This document shows positions 1-8,278 of a DNA stretch of 64,000 nt, piece by piece. The number at the start of each line of letters is the position of its first letter. The stretch's first letter is position 1. The stretch is from a virus, in the IMG/VR virus record IMGVR_UViG_3300035491_000322, positions 5,034-69,033 of that record. One strand, 5' to 3'. Under the pieces are notes generated by a model, which had not been told where the DNA came from, did not search any database, and saw only the letters and a list, made by a program, of their open reading frames with translations. Both the position numbers and the translations under genes were made by a program.

Positions 1-2165
1 ATCTGCTGACCCAGGTGGAAGACTACGCCGCCAGTGCCCTGTTTGCCCATTACCAGTACCGGCTGAAAAAAGGGCACAAACCGTCTGGCGTAAACACCTG
101 GCTGCGGCGCATGGTGGCCAAAATCCAACAGCACGCCACCCGCTTTCCCCTGCCCCTGCGGATGATTGCCAACGAACTGAAACGGGCCAACATCGCCCGG
201 GAATGGGCCAGCGCCGTGGCCGCCATCATCCAGGAGCAAACCGCCAACTTTACCCGCCAGGTGCCGGTGCGTCAGTTGCTGGATGCCGCCATGGAGCCGG
301 CCCGCCGCTGGGGGATCTCCCCGCTGCTGCCGGTGATCAAGAAGGAAGCCACCGACCGCCAGCTGGACATGGCCGCCAGTGCCCTGGCCCGGCTGCAGGA
401 TGCCCAGTGGTGGGAGCGGCAAATCACCCAGGCCTGGCGCCGCTACACCGAGCATGTGGCCATTTTGGTGGGCCGGGTACGCCGGGGCGTGAGCGCCTAT
501 GTGTCGCAGCGCACCCTGCAGGAGCACCTGGAACGCAAGCGGGCGGGCATGGCCTGGCTGAAAACCATGTATGCCATCAACGAGGAACTGGAGCTGGAAA
601 TCCCCTTGGCGGACGCGGTGAAAGCCAGCGTGGCCAATCCCGAGATCCGCCGGATGGAGCTGATGGTGCGGATGCGCGGCTTTGAAGACCTGGCCGAAGA
701 GCAGGGCCTGGTGGGCGAGTTCTACACCTGGACCGCACCCAGCAAGTACCACGCCTGGACGGTGGTGGATAACCGCAGCAAAGCGAAAAACGGCGAAAAG
801 CTGGAGAACTGGGTAAGGACCATCCAAAACGACAAGTACCAGGGCTTTACCCCCAGCGAAACCCAGGCCTACCTGTGCCGCCAGTGGAACAAGGCCCGCG
901 CCAAGCTGGACCGGCTGGGCATCCGCCGCTTTGGCTTTAGGGTGGTGGAGCCGCACCACGACGGCACCCCGCACTGGCATTTGCTGATCTTCGTGCACCC
1001 CAGCCAGCGCCGGCTGCTGCGCTCGGTGCTGCGCCATTACGCCATCGAGCACGACCGTCAGGAGCTGGGCAAAAAGGGCTACCGCGCCCGCTTCGACTGG
1101 AAGGAAATCAAAAACGAGCTGGGCAGCGCCACCGGCTACATCGCCAAGTACATCAGCAAGAACATCGACGGCTTCAATATGGACTGGGATGAAGAATCCC
1201 AGGAAGCCGCCTCCAGCTCGGCCCCGGCCGTGGCCGCCTGGGCCAGCCGGTGGCGCATCCGCCAGTTTCAGCAAATTGGCGGCCCCAGCGTGCAGGTGTG
1301 GCGGGAGCTGCGCCGGCTGCGCGAGGCCACCCGCAACCCCATTATCGAACCCGCCCGCCGTGCCGCCGACACCGGCAAGTGGGCCCAGTTTGTGGAAGCC
1401 ATGGGCGGCATCGACAGCCCGCGCCGGGATCATCTGATCAAGCTGGCCCACATCATCAAGCCCGCCGCCAGCAAATACGGGGAAGACGTGGCCAAGCTGC
1501 TGGGCCTGCGCACCATCGACATCACCACCAGCGTTAACGGCATCCCCACCGGGGTGATGGTGGGCGTGTCCGAGGCCCAAACCCGCCACCAGGGCTGGAC
1601 CTTGTCGCGGACCGGCCTTGGCGAGCGCAGCGAGCTGCCCTTAAGCGGCGGCAGCCGCGCCCCTTGGAGTTCTGACAATAACTGTACGGAGGATCAAAAA
1701 CCGGCAGGAAACGATCCGCTGGACCGGGAATTGGCCATGCTCGGCCTCGATGCCCGGGACAAGGAACGGCTGCTGAACGGCGCCGTTATCGAAATTGATG
1801 GTTTATTCATCAGCATTCGCAACGGCTGCCTTAACACCGGCCGCCACCGCCCGGGCCTGCGCCCGGCAGAAGACCCCCTCGCCATCTGGGAAGAGAACGA
1901 GTTCGCCGAACTTGAGTACGAGCGCACCCAAGAGCTTGCCGCCCATTTCCGGTACCAAGTTGCGCAGTTGCTGGACGGCGGGGGCAACATTGAAGCCTGG
2001 CTGGCCACCGTCCCCGAAGCGCACCTGCAGCTGGCCCTGGAGCAGGCCGACGTCCTACTGATGAAGATAGAAAAAGAGGCCCGCTGGATGGAAGCCGCCG
2101 AACCCAAGTACCACGAAGACGATTTTGAAGACTGGATGAACGAACTTTGCCAAGACCAGCTATGA
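1..2165 (+). CDS. P2-type replication endonuclease gpA (5' end outside window)
   Basis: Frame open from the window edge; motifs YTWTAPSKYH, RVVEPHHDGTPHWH, GYIAKYISKNIDG, WRIRQFQQIGG of rolling-circle protein A. Confidence 0.95.
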   Translation, partial: LLTQVEDYAASALFAHYQYRLKKGHKPSGVNTWLRRMVAKIQQHATRFPLPLRMIANELKRANIAREWASAVAAIIQEQTANFTRQVPVRQLLDAAMEPARRWGISPLLPVIKKEATDRQLDMAASALARLQDAQWWERQITQAWRRYTEHVAILVGRVRRGVSAYVSQRTLQEHLERKRAGMAWLKTMYAINEELELEIPLADAVKASVANPEIRRMELMVRMRGFEDLAEEQGLVGEFYTWTAPSKYHAWTVVDNRSKAKNGEKLENWVRTIQNDKYQGFTPSETQAYLCRQWNKARAKLDRLGIRRFGFRVVEPHHDGTPHWHLLIFVHPSQRRLLRSVLRHYAIEHDRQELGKKGYRARFDWKEIKNELGSATGYIAKYISKNIDGFNMDWDEESQEAASSSAPAVAAWASRWRIRQFQQIGGPSVQVWRELRRLREATRNPIIEPARRAADTGKWAQFVEAMGGIDSPRRDHLIKLAHIIKPAASKYGEDVAKLLGLRTIDITTSVNGIPTGVMVGVSEAQTRHQGWTLSRTGLGERSELPLSGGSRAPWSSDNNCTEDQKPAGNDPLDRELAMLGLDARDKERLLNGAVIEIDGLFISIRNGCLNTGRHRPGLRPAEDPLAIWEENEFAELEYERTQELAAHFRYQVAQLLDGGGNIEAWLATVPEAHLQLALEQADVLLMKIEKEARWMEAAEPKYHEDDFEDWMNELCQDQL

Positions 2166-2346
2166 AAAACCATCCGTACAACACCCGTACAAAATCGTTG
2201 ATCTTGAGTGCTCTAATCGCTATAGTTTGTGTACGGCTATCAGACGGGCAGCTCACAACCCTGACGCAGTTAGTGGCAATGACTAGTCCCCTGAAAGCTG
2301 TGTTTACAGTGGAGTTACTTTTCTACATTGAGAAGTAACCACAACC

Positions 2347-2366
2347 AGCACAAAAAGTGCTTTTTT
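2347..2366 (+). terminator. Probable intrinsic terminator after gene A region
   Basis: AGCAC-AAAAA-GTGCT hairpin followed by a T-run; short stem. Confidence 0.45.
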
Positions 2367-2505
2367 CAAGGAGTAAAACATGGAGCTCAATTTTTCGTTT
2401 GCAAGGATAAAATTATTTTTAATCTTATTTGAACCCAACAAATGGATTCTAAATAGATCCTAAAAATAGAAGGAGATTATCAGACTAATATATGAGGTAT
2501 TTGTT

Positions 2506-2826
2506 ATGGCAACTGTTGCACTGAGAAGAGATAGATCTACTCCTGCACTGCCTAAATCTAAAGATAGCAGGATAGAGCTAAAAACTAATCAACTGGTCAA
2601 AGAGACCCTTCGAACTGCGGCTGCATTCAGTGGTGTTGATTTAACGGCTTTCATTATCCAAGCAGCGTCAGAGAAAGCTCGTCGATTGCTGCTGGAGAGT
2701 CAGATTACGATGCTTTCAGCTGAAGAGTTTGACAAGGTGAACGCTCTAAATCAAGCTAATGATGCTCCAGCAGAAGGGTTAATTGACCTCATGTCCGGAG
2801 AGCTTTTTAATGAGCGCAAAGAGTGA
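2506..2826 (+). CDS. DUF1778-family (TacA/AtaR-like) RHH antitoxin
   Basis: 106 aa; KDSRIELKT..VKETLRTAAAFSGVDLTAFIIQAASEKARRLL...ITMLSAEEFDK pattern; overlaps a GNAT gene. Confidence 0.85.
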   Translation: MATVALRRDRSTPALPKSKDSRIELKTNQLVKETLRTAAAFSGVDLTAFIIQAASEKARRLLLESQITMLSAEEFDKVNALNQANDAPAEGLIDLMSGELFNERKE

Positions 2827-3385
2827 TGTAAGTCAGGAAAAAGAAGTTACATTCGAGACCAAGGTCTTCTCGAATGAAAAAAAGAAAGACCTTAAGGACT
2901 TTGACTGCGGCGATGCGGTCCTTAATAACTGCCTTATTAATGGCAAGATTAAAGACTTGGTGAGCCAGTCAATTATCACTTGCAAGTTGCTGGTTGAAGA
3001 GAAAAACTCAAAGGTTGTTGGTTTTTATACTCTTAAAAACCACACCCTTGCCCGCGGTGACTTTGAGATTACGGGGAAATTTCAAAATATACCTGTGACT
3101 AAACTTGATATGCTTGCAGTAGATAAAGGATATCAAGGTCAAGGGTTAGGCATCAAGTTGCTGAGGCAAGCTATTTCCAATGCTTTTGAAGCATCAAAGC
3201 ATGTTGGATCCAACGGCATTTATCTTGAGGCCGTAGAAGATAAAGTTAATTTCTATAGCAGGTTGGGGTTTACTGTTATAGGCGAGGCAAAGTCTCATAG
3301 TAGTGGTAATAGCCTCGTACCTATGTATCTGTCTATGCTTCAAATAAAGGCTGCTTTGAGTTGCAGAAAGGATGATGTAGCTTAA
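2810..3385 (+). CDS. GNAT acetyltransferase toxin (TacT/AtaT-like)
   Basis: LKDFDCGDAVLN, VVGFYTL, LAVDKGYQGQGLG acetyl-CoA loop, FYSRLGF; start ATG at 2810 assumed. Confidence 0.88.
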   Translation: MSAKSDVSQEKEVTFETKVFSNEKKKDLKDFDCGDAVLNNCLINGKIKDLVSQSIITCKLLVEEKNSKVVGFYTLKNHTLARGDFEITGKFQNIPVTKLDMLAVDKGYQGQGLGIKLLRQAISNAFEASKHVGSNGIYLEAVEDKVNFYSRLGFTVIGEAKSHSSGNSLVPMYLSMLQIKAALSCRKDDVA

Positions 3386-3391
3386 TCGGAT

Positions 3392-3412
3392 AGGGGCGCA
3401 TATAGCGTCCCT
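3392..3412 (+). terminator. Hairpin after GNAT toxin
   Basis: AGGGGCGC-ATATA-GCGTCCCT then a weak T tract. Confidence 0.4.
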
Positions 3413-3508
3413 TCTAACTTTCATCTCCGCTCTCAAATATCAAAGCATTCACCAACCATTCTACATTATGTTGCCACTAAAACAGAACTAACCAAGAGTG
3501 TAAGCTCA

Positions 3509-4027
3509 ATGCATTCTAATCAATACTCTATAAAGCCTATATACTTATGGGTCATACTGCTTTTGGCGTCAATCATATTATGGTCATATCAGAAGTATGA
3601 TTTATTCTTTACATCATCAATTCTCTCGTTCTTTTTTGGACTGATAACTCTTCTTGAATTGGAAACAGAACAAATCTTAAAGGGAGTATTATTGATTATC
3701 ACAGGAGCAGGATCAGGAATAATAATACAATCCCTTGCTTCTCAAGAGATAATGGAAAACTCCCCCAAAACAATACTGCATTTAGGGATCTTGAAAGACA
3801 TAATTATCTATTCATTCTCTGGTGCAGGTGGCGGGATACTTGCGACGTATGCCGACAGATATAGACATAAAACAGAAAAGGTTAACTTCCCCTGTCAAAG
3901 GCAAGAGTCATTAGTTATTAATGAGCTAAGGGAAGACATAAGAAACTTAAGAAAAAATATTTTTTATTTTTTCTCTTTTATAGCAATAACTTTAACTGCT
4001 TTGATAGTGGTGATATTGATTAAGTAA
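3509..4027 (+). CDS. Orphan multi-pass membrane protein (AT-rich cargo)
   Basis: 172 aa, several hydrophobic segments plus C-terminal coiled-coil and TM; no family recognised. Confidence 0.7.
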   Translation: MHSNQYSIKPIYLWVILLLASIILWSYQKYDLFFTSSILSFFFGLITLLELETEQILKGVLLIITGAGSGIIIQSLASQEIMENSPKTILHLGILKDIIIYSFSGAGGGILATYADRYRHKTEKVNFPCQRQESLVINELREDIRNLRKNIFYFFSFIAITLTALIVVILIK

Positions 4028-4051
4028 TTTCATAAAAAGATAATTTAAGAT

Positions 4052-4077
4052 AAAAAAGGGCGCTTACCGCGCCCCTT
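4052..4077 (-). terminator. Intrinsic terminator of ogr (convergent with cargo gene)
   Basis: AAAAAAGGGCGC-TTACC-GCGCCC; T-run on the minus strand. Confidence 0.65.
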
Positions 4078-4318
4078 CCAGTTCCCTCAGTAAATCTTTC
4101 TGTGCCCCTGGTGGCAAAGCCTTCATCAGTTGGAACGCCATCTGGGTGGTGGTTTTGGCGCTGGGGCTCAGGCTGTGCCGGTAGCCGGCGCCCATCACCC
4201 AGGTGTGGCCGCACTCGGCATCGTTGCACTGGCAATACAACTCGGTGTAATCCCGGCTCAGGCGGTTGGTTTTTGTTATCCGCCCCTTGCTTCCGCACTC
4301 TCTGCAGTAAACCCGCAT
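4064..4318 (-). CDS. ogr: Ogr/Delta zinc-finger late-gene activator
   Basis: CRECGSKGRI...LYCQCNDAECGHTW, Cys4 motif of the Ogr family. Confidence 0.92.
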   Translation of the reverse strand: MRVYCRECGSKGRITKTNRLSRDYTELYCQCNDAECGHTWVMGAGYRHSLSPSAKTTTQMAFQLMKALPPGAQKDLLRELEGAR

Positions 4319-4401
4319 GTTTAAAACTCCCCCGAGTAAACATGCACCTATGATAAATCATCCGGCACCGGATGGCAGCAAACCACTGTGTTTTTATCCA
4401 G

Positions 4402-5397
4402 TCACTCCAGCGCAAACTGCAGGGCCAGCCGCGCCGGAATATCCGGGTCCGAGTTAACCACGTCGGCGATCAGCTCGCACAGCGGCGCCACCTCGTTGCG
4501 GGTGTAAACGGCGTCGTATTTCTCCGGGTCGCCCAGGCCGCCGGTGTTGGTGGGGATGATGCCGGCCAGCCCGGGCGGAAAGCGGTGCGCGGTGAGCACG
4601 TCCTGGGCGCTGATGTTCTTGATGCGGTCAAAGTCGTCCTTGGTGGCGATGTCTCCCACCGGGATCAGCTTCACCCCGTCCGGGTTGCCGTTGGGGATGT
4701 TGATAAACAGGCTGCGGAAGTTGCCCACCCCCTTGGAGCTTTGGATCTTCTCCTTCAGCTCTTCTTCCTGGCTTTCGCTCAGGTTGGGGTCGGTGGCGTA
4801 GAAGATAAAGCCCATGTGGGCGCCGTTCTGGTAGTAGCGCCGGCGGAACAGGGTGGCGTCCCGGTTCAGCAGGGCGGACTGGATGCCGCCCAGGTAGTCC
4901 GGCAGGCCGTAGATCTGTTGGCGGGGGTCGTACTGGCTCAGGAAGATAACGTCGTCTTCCCGGTAGCGGATCTGCTGGTTGTTGGCCTGCAGCAGCACAA
5001 AATCCCCGCTCTTGTGCCGGCGCAGGTACATGGAGGGCAGCGGATGCAGCCGCACCACCCGCCCCAGGCCGTTGCGGATCTTCAAAAAAGCGGCGTCGCC
5101 GAACTGGATCAGGTTGTGGGCAAAGGCCTGCATCTGCACCCGCTTCATGCCCCCGCCGCCCTTGAACTTGCCGGCGATCATGTTGCGCCGGGCATAGAGC
5201 AGGGCCCCGTGGTGGGCGTTGGTGTTGGCAATCTGGGCCAGCCCCTGGCGGCTGACCGGGGTGCTCCAGTAGTCGGCGTAATCGTCGTAAAACAGTTCGG
5301 TGTAGTCGGTCAGCCAGCGGCCGGGCTCGATGGCCTCCGGCTCGCCAAAGCTGAACGCAACCAGATTGTTGGATTGATGGCTGGCTTGCTCGGTCAT
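4402..5397 (-). CDS. PBSX-family portal protein (P2 gpQ-like)
   Basis: Start MTEQASHQ; [45 protein letters not shown]. Confidence 0.93.
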
Positions 5398-7223
5398 GCT
5401 TGTATGGCCCAGGTTGAGGTGCGTTGGTTGGAGTGGTCCAGCGGCTCGTTGATCACCGCGTGGGCGATGGCGAAAAAGGCGTCGGCGTGGCCGGTGGTGG
5501 CGTCCCGCCCCGCCTTGAAGGTCATGGCATTGCCGGATCCGGTGGTGGTGCGCTTGATGGCCATAAACGCCAACGGAATGTCCTTGTGCAGCCGGTCCCA
5601 GCTGATGCGCCCGGCCTCCACCACGTCGATCATCTTCAGCACCAGGCGGTTCTTGCTCTCCACCGAGTAGTGGATGGCGTGCGCCTCGCGTGGGTACTTG
5701 GTCTTGATAAGGTCGAACACCCCGGCGCCGATGCCGGTAATGTCCACCCCGATGTAGGTCACCCGGTAGCGCTTGAACAGCTTGGCGATTTCGGCCACAT
5801 GGTGCTGAAAGTTGAGCCCCCGCCAGTGGTGCTTTTCCAGCACCCGGAACGGCTCGCCGCCGACCAGCGGCGGGGCCAGCACCACCAGGGTGGCGTTGTC
5901 GCGGGTGCGGCTCGGGTCGTAGCCCAGCCACACCTCGCGGGTACCGAACGGCCGGGCCGCGCGCGGGTCGAAGTCTTCCCACTGGGCGGTGTCGACGCCG
6001 CAGCCTTCCAGCTGGTTGAACTTGAACACGCTGGCTTCGTCGTCGACGAACTCGCACATAAACAGGTTGCGGAACACCTCGTCGGCGTACTCGTCGCGCA
6101 GCTCGTCAACGTCAATGAGGTTGCAGCCGCTGGCCACCGCGTCTTCCACCGTGATGGCGTAGCGCCATTGCCGGTCCGGGCATACCCGGCCGCCGTCCTG
6201 GTAGTCGGCCAGGGTCGGGAATTCGATATCCTTGCGGCTGTCCTTGCCGTCCTTCCAGCTGTCGCCGGTCCAGAAGCCATAGCCCGGGTGCGACTTGGCC
6301 GAGGGGGTGGAGAAGTAGGTTTTCCGCCACCGGCTCTGGGTGGCCATGGCAGAGGCCACGTTGGACAGCTTGGTAAAGCCCGGGATCCAGAAGTATTCGT
6401 CGATGTAGACGTTGCCGGAGCGGGACTGGGCGCTGTTGGAGTTGGTGGACAGAAAGTGCAGCTCGGCACAGTTGCTTAAGATTATCGGGTTGCCCGACAG
6501 CTCCACCCCCAGAAACTCCCGGGCGATGTTGATGATGTAGGAGCGGAACACCTCGGCCTGGGCCCGGGTGGCGGACAGGAAGATCTGGTTGCCGCCGGTG
6601 ATGACGGCGTCTTCCAGGGCCTCGCCGGCGAAGTAGTAGGTCATGCCGATTTGGCGGCTTTTCAGGATGTTGCGGGTGCGCGGGATGGCCGGGTCGTTCT
6701 TGGCCTCGCGGCAGCGCAGCTGATAGCCGAACAGGGTGCCCAGCCAGCCCTCGAAGTCCTCGGGCAGCAGCTCGCCGATGTCGTTCTTGCGCTGCTTGCC
6801 CCTCTTGCCTTTACCACCCTTGGCCTGGCCCCCGCCGCGCTTGCCGCGCCGCCCGTTCGGCTCCGGCCATTCATCCGCCGGCACCCCGGCGGCCAGGGCC
6901 GCTTCCCGCTCCTTCAGGGCCAGCTCTTTCTCGCGCAGCTGCACCAGGTCTTTCTTCAGCCGCACATGCTGGCCGATCAGCCGGTCCAGTTCGTCCAGCT
7001 CGGCCGGGGTCTTCTTTTCCCGGGCCAGCAGCAGCTGCACCCGCCGGGCGATGGCGTCTTCCAGCTGCTCGTCGGACAGCAGCGCGTCCCAGCTGTATTT
7101 TTCCACCCACTGGTACACCACCCGCGCCGAGTTCAGGCCCAGCTCCTGGGCGATTTCCCGGGGCAGCCAGCGCTTGAGGTAAAGCCCCTTGGCGGCGTTG
7201 CGGATTTCTTCGGTGTAGGCCAT
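5394..7223 (-). CDS. Terminase ATPase subunit (P2 gpP-like)
   Basis: [44 protein letters not shown]. Confidence 0.95.
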
Positions 7224-7325: not shown

Positions 7326-7399
7326 CGGTGGAACGGCCCTTGATGAAATCCCCTTCACAAGCCCCTAGCCTGTCGCCATCACAGAACACGAGCAGGCAC

Positions 7400-8278
7400 A
7401 TGAAACCCGATTCACGGTTACGCACAGGCTGGATTTGCATTGCCACCGAGGGCAACAGCATCGACGGGCGTTTTATCTCCCGCGAGTGGCTGACCGACAT
7501 GGCCGAAACCTACGACCCGGACCACTACACCGCCGTTATCTGGCCGGATCACTCTCGCTGGTCGGCCATGGGCACCGTGGAAGCGCTCAAGGCCGAGCCA
7601 GTGGACGGCAAGATGAAGCTGTTTGCCGTGCTGCGCCCGACCCGGGATCTCATTTACTACAACCAGCTTGGCCAGTACCAGTTCTGCAGCATCGAGCCCC
7701 TGGAGCAATTCGCCGGCGGCGACAAAACCTACCTGGGCGGCCTGGGCGTCACCGACCGTCCGGCCAGCACCGGCACCACCCGCATGCAGTTCAGTGCCAA
7801 GGACAAAGCCCCCAAGCTCATCGGCGAAAGCCAGCCGCTCAGCCTGGCCGAACTGGCCGACCGCGAGCAGGAAGCCGGCCTGTTCAAGAAGTTTATGGCC
7901 TGGTTCAAAACCCAGGAACAAGAGCCCCCTGCCCCCACCAATAACACCCCCGAGGATCCAGCAATGGACAAAGAGCAGTTCAACGAGCTGATGAACACGG
8001 TTAAAGGCATCGCCACCAAGCAGGGCGAGCTGGAAACCAAGTTCGAGCAGTTCAGCAAAAAAGACGAGCCCGCCCCCGAGCCGGAAGTAAAGCCCGAGCC
8101 CGCCCCGGCCCCCGCCGGCGTCACCGCCGAGCAGTTCAGCGAGCTGCTGAACGCCGTCAAGGGCGTGGCCGAGAAGCAGGGCGCGCTGGAAACCCAGTTT
8201 TCCGCCCTACTGAAGGAAGCGCCCGGCCAGAACCCCAATCCCGCCCCCGCCGGCGGCGACGTCTATCACCTGGTGTAA
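7400..8278 (+). CDS. Capsid scaffolding/protease (P2 gpO-like)
   Basis: WICIATEGNSIDGR, MAETYDP, YLGGLGVTDRPASTGT. Confidence 0.92.
   Translation: MKPDSRLRTGWICIATEGNSIDGRFISREWLTDMAETYDPDHYTAVIWPDHSRWSAMGTVEALKAEPVDGKMKLFAVLRPTRDLIYYNQLGQYQFCSIEPLEQFAGGDKTYLGGLGVTDRPASTGTTRMQFSAKDKAPKLIGESQPLSLAELADREQEAGLFKKFMAWFKTQEQEPPAPTNNTPEDPAMDKEQFNELMNTVKGIATKQGELETKFEQFSKKDEPAPEPEVKPEPAPAPAGVTAEQFSELLNAVKGVAEKQGALETQFSALLKEAPGQNPNPAPAGGDVYHLV

Follow-up and report, generated by a model that had tools for sequence, protein, structure and literature searches.

DUF1778–GNAT toxins have been studied extensively in connection with persistence and plasmid stability. The biochemistry of the family, namely acetylation of aminoacyl-tRNA, has been described, and the DUF1778-linked GNATs were assigned to one 'true TA clade' (Bikmetov et al., PMC9177977). 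The characterized systems whose toxins gave the best sequence matches to the toxin analyzed here are AtaR–AtaT of E. coli O157 and KacA–KacT of Klebsiella pneumoniae. TacA–TacT1/2/3 of Salmonella, GmvAT of Shigella and AtaR2–AtaT2 represent the same family and fold as our pair, for which the same chemistry is expected, and their toxins are specific for Gly-tRNA (clade D, PMC9177977). [quoted passage not shown] 2022, PMC9122126). In the available part of the table of that study, a GNAT is placed in one arrangement, there without the DUF1778 partner.

The DNA analyzed here, referred to as the window, is a 64,000-nucleotide stretch of an IMG/VR provirus record of 75.9 kb; it starts within gene A of a P2-like prophage. 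The slot downstream of gene A resembles the old/tin locus of the E. coli hotspot in position, high variability and foreign composition. It differs from the E. coli arrangement in that ogr sits between the slot and the portal gene, and its cargo is a classical toxin–antitoxin (TA) pair, not among the systems tested in the E. coli hotspot. With a probability of roughly 0.8, we consider the segment 2166–3412 to be a self-contained DUF1778–GNAT type II TA cassette, carried by the P2-like prophage as exchangeable, horizontally acquired hotspot cargo. The features of the region are collected in Table 1.

Table 1. Features of the slot and its surroundings (window coordinates).
Feature	Position	Strand	Basis or remark
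gpA replication protein	15..2165	+	PF05840 Phage_GPA, 1.3e-88; N-terminus cut by the window start; left edge of the slot
Constrained non-coding region of the TA cassette	2166..2505	+	93.8% identical to the O. smirnovii prophage copy (L005)
Tandem 11-bp repeats CATCCGTACAA/CACCCGTACAA	2171-2192	+	
Promoter-like site TTGATC-17-TATAGT	2198-2226	+	Bracketed by CCGTACAA repeats
Folding leader, ~135 nt, three hairpins	2232-2368	+	-46.5 kcal/mol, z -4.26
Inverted repeat copy TTGTGTACGG	2233-2242	+	
Weak terminator hairpin and U6	2347-2367	+	Last of the three leader hairpins
27-codon ORF with AAGGAG ribosome-binding site	2380-2463	+	Between the leader hairpins and the antitoxin gene
Antitoxin, 106 aa, DUF1778/TacA1 type, ribbon-helix-helix (RHH) N-terminal part	2506..2826	+	PF08681
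GNAT toxin, 191 aa, acetyl-CoA loop Q109-G114, catalytic Tyr149	2810..3385	+	Sequence and fold matches
Hairpin after the toxin stop codon	3392..3412	+	-16.2 kcal/mol, z -4.43; similarity to L005 ends
172-aa orphan, multi-pass membrane-like, separate from the TA cassette	3509..4027	+	Topology assigned by eye
ogr/delta zinc-finger late activator	4064..4318	-	PF04606, 1.8e-12; right edge of the slot
Portal protein (gpQ equivalent)	4402..5394	-	PF04860, 7.1e-14
Large terminase	5394-7223	-	Beyond the portal gene
gpO scaffold	7328-8278	+	Beyond the large terminase gene

The slot between gpA and ogr and its relatives

The nearest sequenced phage was Aeromonas phage phiO18P (Bielevirus, Peduoviridae), with ~70% nucleotide identity. 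Two related IMG/VR proviruses, L005 and L006, encode a gpA with 83% identity to that of the window; L005 is the same as L010, the prophage of Oceanimonas smirnovii ATCC BAA-899. The closest prophages were found in O. smirnovii and Oceanisphaera. Elsewhere in the window, the segment 44493–51211 showed 80% identity over 6.7 kb to the genome of O. smirnovii ATCC BAA-899, where its counterpart and the P2-like prophage lie on separate contigs; the segment could stem from the host or from a second prophage common to both. The closest prophages, together with this 6.7-kb match, suggest that the host is probably Oceanimonas.

With a gpA profile, 80 loci were obtained from species-representative genomes and added to the viral and phage records, and the 54 non-redundant loci in which both slot boundaries could be placed served as the comparison set. 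The slot in these loci was 327–5892 bp long (median 2410 bp), and its GC content was below that of the flanks in 53 of the 54. In the window, GC content in 300-nt windows amounted to 0.61–0.70 until ~2100, 0.32–0.43 over 2250–4050 and 0.57–0.65 beyond 4050. The slot mean of 0.38 against 0.63 in the flanks gives a deficit of 0.25, the largest of the 54 related loci. At the right boundary, a hairpin (4058–4074, -12.5 kcal/mol) overlaps the ogr stop codon.

The 119 ORFs present in the slots were scanned with Pfam and PADLOC. The domains recognized were C5 DNA methylases (8), HicB-like antitoxins (3), CAP12/Pycsar-type TIR (2) and DUF4760 (2), besides ParE-like, RES, Gp49, putative AbiC and others. 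The slot of L006 (8444–11971) contains a small methyltransferase-like gene (weak, below-cut-off Pfam match), a zinc-finger-like ORF, an Xre–RES pair and a 356-aa orphan protein gene of GC ~0.31, and the slot of L007 (gpA 67% identical) contains a HicB-like gene. A third GNAT encountered in the relatives' slots was checked as possible kin of the window toxin and turned out to be unrelated.

The earlier note on this DNA had described an abrupt fall of GC content right after the gene A stop codon (2165), its recovery at ogr (about 4060), these two genes as the edges of the slot, and the slot between rep and portal as a hotspot in which the pair is variable cargo. All of this held: GC content fell sharply from ~0.63 to 0.38 and was at least 0.57 from 4050 onward, the boundaries lay where claimed, and the 54 loci varied in length and contents of a low-GC slot. 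The slot comparison across relatives, proposed in the same note, showed that the pair is not fixed, being shared with only one of the 53 other non-redundant loci, the O. smirnovii prophage. The label HP1-like for the prophage had to be given up, phiO18P being closer than HP1.

Homologues were found in only 17 of 50,697 phage records, none of them P2-like. Metagenome scans gave no match by protein patterns or by a 26-nt motif from the upstream region, and the viral scans returned the O. smirnovii provirus only.

The L005 copy was used as the comparison copy for the DNA of the pair. Similarity between the two begins directly after the gpA stop codon and ends at the hairpin that follows the toxin gene; the cassette, with the 340 bp that precede the antitoxin gene, is thus common to the window and L005/L010, and the downstream genes differ. 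The hairpin probably marks both the end of the TA transcription unit and the right edge of the shared cassette. The antitoxin was 93% identical to its L005 counterpart (dN/dS 0.12, dS 0.30) and the toxin 83% identical (dN/dS 0.19, dS 0.50; Nei–Gojobori method in both cases). Both TA genes are under purifying selection, as these dN/dS values against the O. smirnovii copy indicate. The dS of the flanking ogr was 0.69 against 0.30–0.50 for the pair, and the TA genes have been diverging on roughly the timescale of the phage backbone.

Further cargo follows the cassette. The 172-aa ORF (GC ~0.35) gave no significant Pfam, NCBIfam or PADLOC match, and its protein-atlas matches were to unnamed clusters only. 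Besides the shorter gene call of the window itself, its homologues were P0155 (79% identical, full-length) and one partial sequence; kinship with the low-GC 356-aa protein encoded at the equivalent position of L006 was considered and rejected. The ORF is absent from L005, which carries the TA pair, and is therefore separable from the pair. P0155 and the toxin homologue P0159 have the same longest listed contig (15,026 bp), so these two may travel together. Downstream of the TA pair in L005 (9376–10316) lie two genes without obvious toxin partners, one ParD-like and one resembling CopG/RHH antitoxins, which may be orphan antitoxins.

The antitoxin and toxin genes

The pair possesses every defining feature of the DUF1778–GNAT family that can be tested in sequence. 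The antitoxin matched PF08681 TacA1 with 48.5 bits (cut-off 21) over profile positions 1–76 of 80, and gave weak PDB matches to KacA, AtaR and further DUF1778 chains. As in AtaR–AtaT and KacA–KacT, the antitoxin, of the TacA1/DUF1778 family, is encoded first and the genes overlap: the antitoxin stop codon (2824–2826) lies inside the toxin ORF, which starts with ATG 2810, so that 17 nt are shared, and L005 is arranged alike. Such an antitoxin-first order with overlap is the canonical layout of type II modules. The longest form of the toxin ORF begins with TTG 2783, and ATG 2810, preceded by GGAG at 2797–2800, gives the 191-aa product found in public gene calls (P0001).

The toxin matched GNAT Pfam models with E-values from 5e-11 to 1e-8. 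Its best PDB sequence matches were AtaT (6e-16), KacT (6.5e-15) and 7byy (5e-13), followed in the ranking by GmvT, AtaT2 and TacT1–3; all PDB sequence matches down to 7.4e-7 were tRNA-acetylating toxins, and unrelated GNATs appeared at E-values of at least 1e-3. The catalytic tyrosine is kept, Y149 being aligned with Y144 of AtaT (Y145 of KacT), the residues named in the titles of PDB entries for the Y144F (AtaT) and Y145F (KacT) mutants. In an alignment of 62 members, F31, C33, G71, G114, F148, Y149 and F154 were near-invariant. The whole length of the toxin was also covered by phrog_1758 (PHROGs phage acetyltransferase, 3.2e-31).

An AlphaFold2 model built on the alignment of 62 relatives had a pLDDT of 89.5 and a pTM of 0.84. 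When it was searched with Foldseek against the PDB, ranks 1–36 among the matches listed were all tRNA-acetylating toxins: 7byy, AtaT (including the complex with acetyl-Met-tRNAfMet), KacT, TacT1–3, GmvT and AtaT2. Target-normalized TM-scores were 0.76–0.89 for the tRNA-acetylating toxins (~0.8 for AtaT and KacT), and generic GNATs followed after a gap with 0.52–0.68; the E-value also jumps after rank 36.

The two genes had been called an RHH antitoxin and a GNAT toxin with an intact acetyl-CoA loop. These assignments are upheld by the PF08681 match (8.5e-13) in the proposed DUF1778 HMM check, by the GNAT Pfam models together with the match to AtaT, and by the alignment of the loop Q109-G-Q-G-L-G114 with the QGQGWG loop of AtaT (ending at G108). 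In a public homologue of the toxin that is 86% identical (P0002), the loop reads QGQRLG where the window has QGQGLG, and this protein may represent an attenuated variant.

Several traits set the pair apart from AtaRT and KacAT. Its toxin is only ~26–28% identical to AtaT and KacT in fold alignments (24–28% across the characterized toxins) and has an additional C-terminal helix in the AlphaFold2 model (residues 176–189), whereas its antitoxin has ~20 additional N-terminal residues compared with AtaR and KacA. Unlike AtaRT and KacAT, it occupies a hotspot of a P2-like prophage and is preceded by a long region under constraint. When 1.84 billion representative proteins were searched, 2066 relatives of the toxin were obtained at E ≤ 1e-3; above 50% identity there was the toxin's own cluster only, and the next relative, from Aeromonas species, was 43% identical. 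These Aeromonas relatives (P0006 cluster) were considered as the characterized AcaT, which was ruled out by the different N-terminus given in the supplement of the paper. Judged by sequence, the window pair is a rare, divergent member of the large, well-characterized DUF1778/GNAT TA family. The toxin lies on a sparse branch and, with its next relative at 43%, its substrate could differ from those of the characterized toxins.

TacT, GmvT and AtaT2 were further from the window toxin (41–47 bits) than AtaT and KacT (57–62 bits). Since the best scores were obtained with AtaT and KacT, which belong to clade A and have broad specificity, the score ranking suggests that a Gly-only tRNA target would not be the default expectation. 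By analogy, we infer toxicity and tRNA acetylation for the window toxin; toxicity and its neutralization are assumed from homology at ~26–36% identity to the characterized toxins.

The conserved region upstream of the pair

The non-coding stretch between the gpA stop codon and the antitoxin gene was found only in the window and L005 and was absent from all other loci. Its distance to the L005 copy (~0.064) is 5–10 times smaller than the dS of the neighboring genes (0.30–0.69). The repeat pair CATCCGTACAA/CACCCGTACAA was likewise specific to this cassette among all loci compared. A scan for consensus promoters showed no enrichment over shuffles. In the predicted stems of the leader, four substitutions separate the window from L005, and pairing is kept in all four in this comparison of two sequences. 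No Rfam family was matched in the scan of 1900–4500.

Two short ORFs were inspected. The 27-codon ORF shows two differences from L005, both synonymous when inspected by eye, and it could be a leader peptide or a chance occurrence. A 63-codon ORF at 2147–2338 was not accepted as a gene, since an indel in L005 moves its end and, again by eye, several of the few differences from L005 change residues. An RNA or regulatory function explains the conservation of 2147–2338 better than coding does.

We read 2166–2505 as a putative autoregulated TA promoter with RHH operators one helical turn apart and a long structured leader. More broadly, the region may comprise an operator, a promoter and a structured leader, or may encode a small RNA; the candidate operator and promoter are named from unenriched consensus scans and two sequences. 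In these two sequences, the constrained structured leader matches nothing described and was the least expected feature of the cassette.

Possible roles of the pair: defence, addiction and others

Following the characterized family, the C-terminal part of the antitoxin would bind the toxin, and its RHH domain would repress the operon, probably at the CCGTACAA repeats flanking the promoter-like site. Once the supply of the labile antitoxin ceases, the GNAT toxin would be freed and, with acetyl-CoA, would acetylate the amino group of charged tRNAs, which would halt translation and growth. That the GNAT is no toxin at all, but acts on another substrate (a small molecule or a protein of host or phage) next to a DUF1778 protein that is merely a transcription factor, seems very improbable to us. 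The low identity to the characterized toxins in fold alignments speaks for such a role, as do the NCBIfam matches, which were weak, below the cut-off and to assorted GNAT enzymes. Nevertheless, the top fold and sequence matches are without exception tRNA-acetylating toxins, clearly set off from other GNATs. The toxin gene is also paired, in the canonical order and with overlap, with a gene for the DUF1778 antitoxin specific to the family, and the DUF1778-linked GNATs form the one TA clade already mentioned.

P2-like prophages are stable integrants already. The gain from a module that serves addiction or selfish retention only, arresting or killing cells which lose the prophage or the pair itself and leaving other phages unaffected, is therefore unclear; we still give this reading a chance that comes close to even without reaching it. 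Type II TA modules carried by mobile elements classically serve addiction, and the TA-type module in the slot differs among the four closest prophage lineages (TacA–GNAT, Xre–RES, HicB-like, and the orphan ParD-like and CopG-like genes). This pattern among the nearest kin resembles turnover of TA modules rather than a defence repertoire. The dS of the pair is of the order of that of ogr, which argues for long retention with the phage lineage. On the other hand, more distant relatives have the slot filled with defence-type proteins (CAP12/Pycsar TIR, putative AbiC, DUF4760), and these also count in favor of the reading, raised in the earlier note, in which the main selected role is abortive-infection defence. 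There, infection by another phage would deplete or displace the antitoxin, and the freed GNAT would block translation, so that the infected lysogen would yield no progeny. The pair would then act in the manner of ToxIN, DarTG and CapRel, TA systems in which infection triggers the toxin and phage yield drops. The position of the pair equals that of the gpA–gpQ hotspot with its protective old and tin, its own conserved upstream control region would permit expression in the lysogen, and tRNA-targeting toxins recur in phage defence, as reported in PMC11559606 and PMC12409363. Against this stand the lack of a model match for either protein in PADLOC-DB 2.0 (no match for the antitoxin, only a chance-level one for the toxin, to a type II restriction enzyme with E 0.043), a full-text literature search that gave no report of an anti-phage DUF1778–GNAT pair, and the occurrence of homologues in so few phage records, none P2-like. 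The hotspot position also fits non-defence cargo, such as the C5 methylases in the slots of eight relatives. Defence as the main selected role thus stays a tentative reading, rather doubtful in our judgment. TA turnover in the nearest kin fits addiction or selfish carriage as well as defence, and addiction is compatible with defence, the two roles not being mutually exclusive; the probability left over from defence and addiction only falls to both roles together, or to neither.

A more elaborate arrangement, in which the cassette is a three-part abortive-infection system with the structured RNA and/or the 27-codon ORF (2232–2463) as a regulatory or sensing element, we regard as unlikely. If true, the TacAT/AtaRT family would thereby gain its first demonstrated role against phages. 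Beyond the leader and the value of the locus as a test bed, the finding is unremarkable, the pair being one divergent representative of a large family already known. The conserved structured leader could point to an additional level of TA control. The window and its sister prophages, with their Xre–RES and HicB-like modules, offer a clean natural test bed in which defence and retention can be set against each other for type II TA modules in a prophage hotspot.
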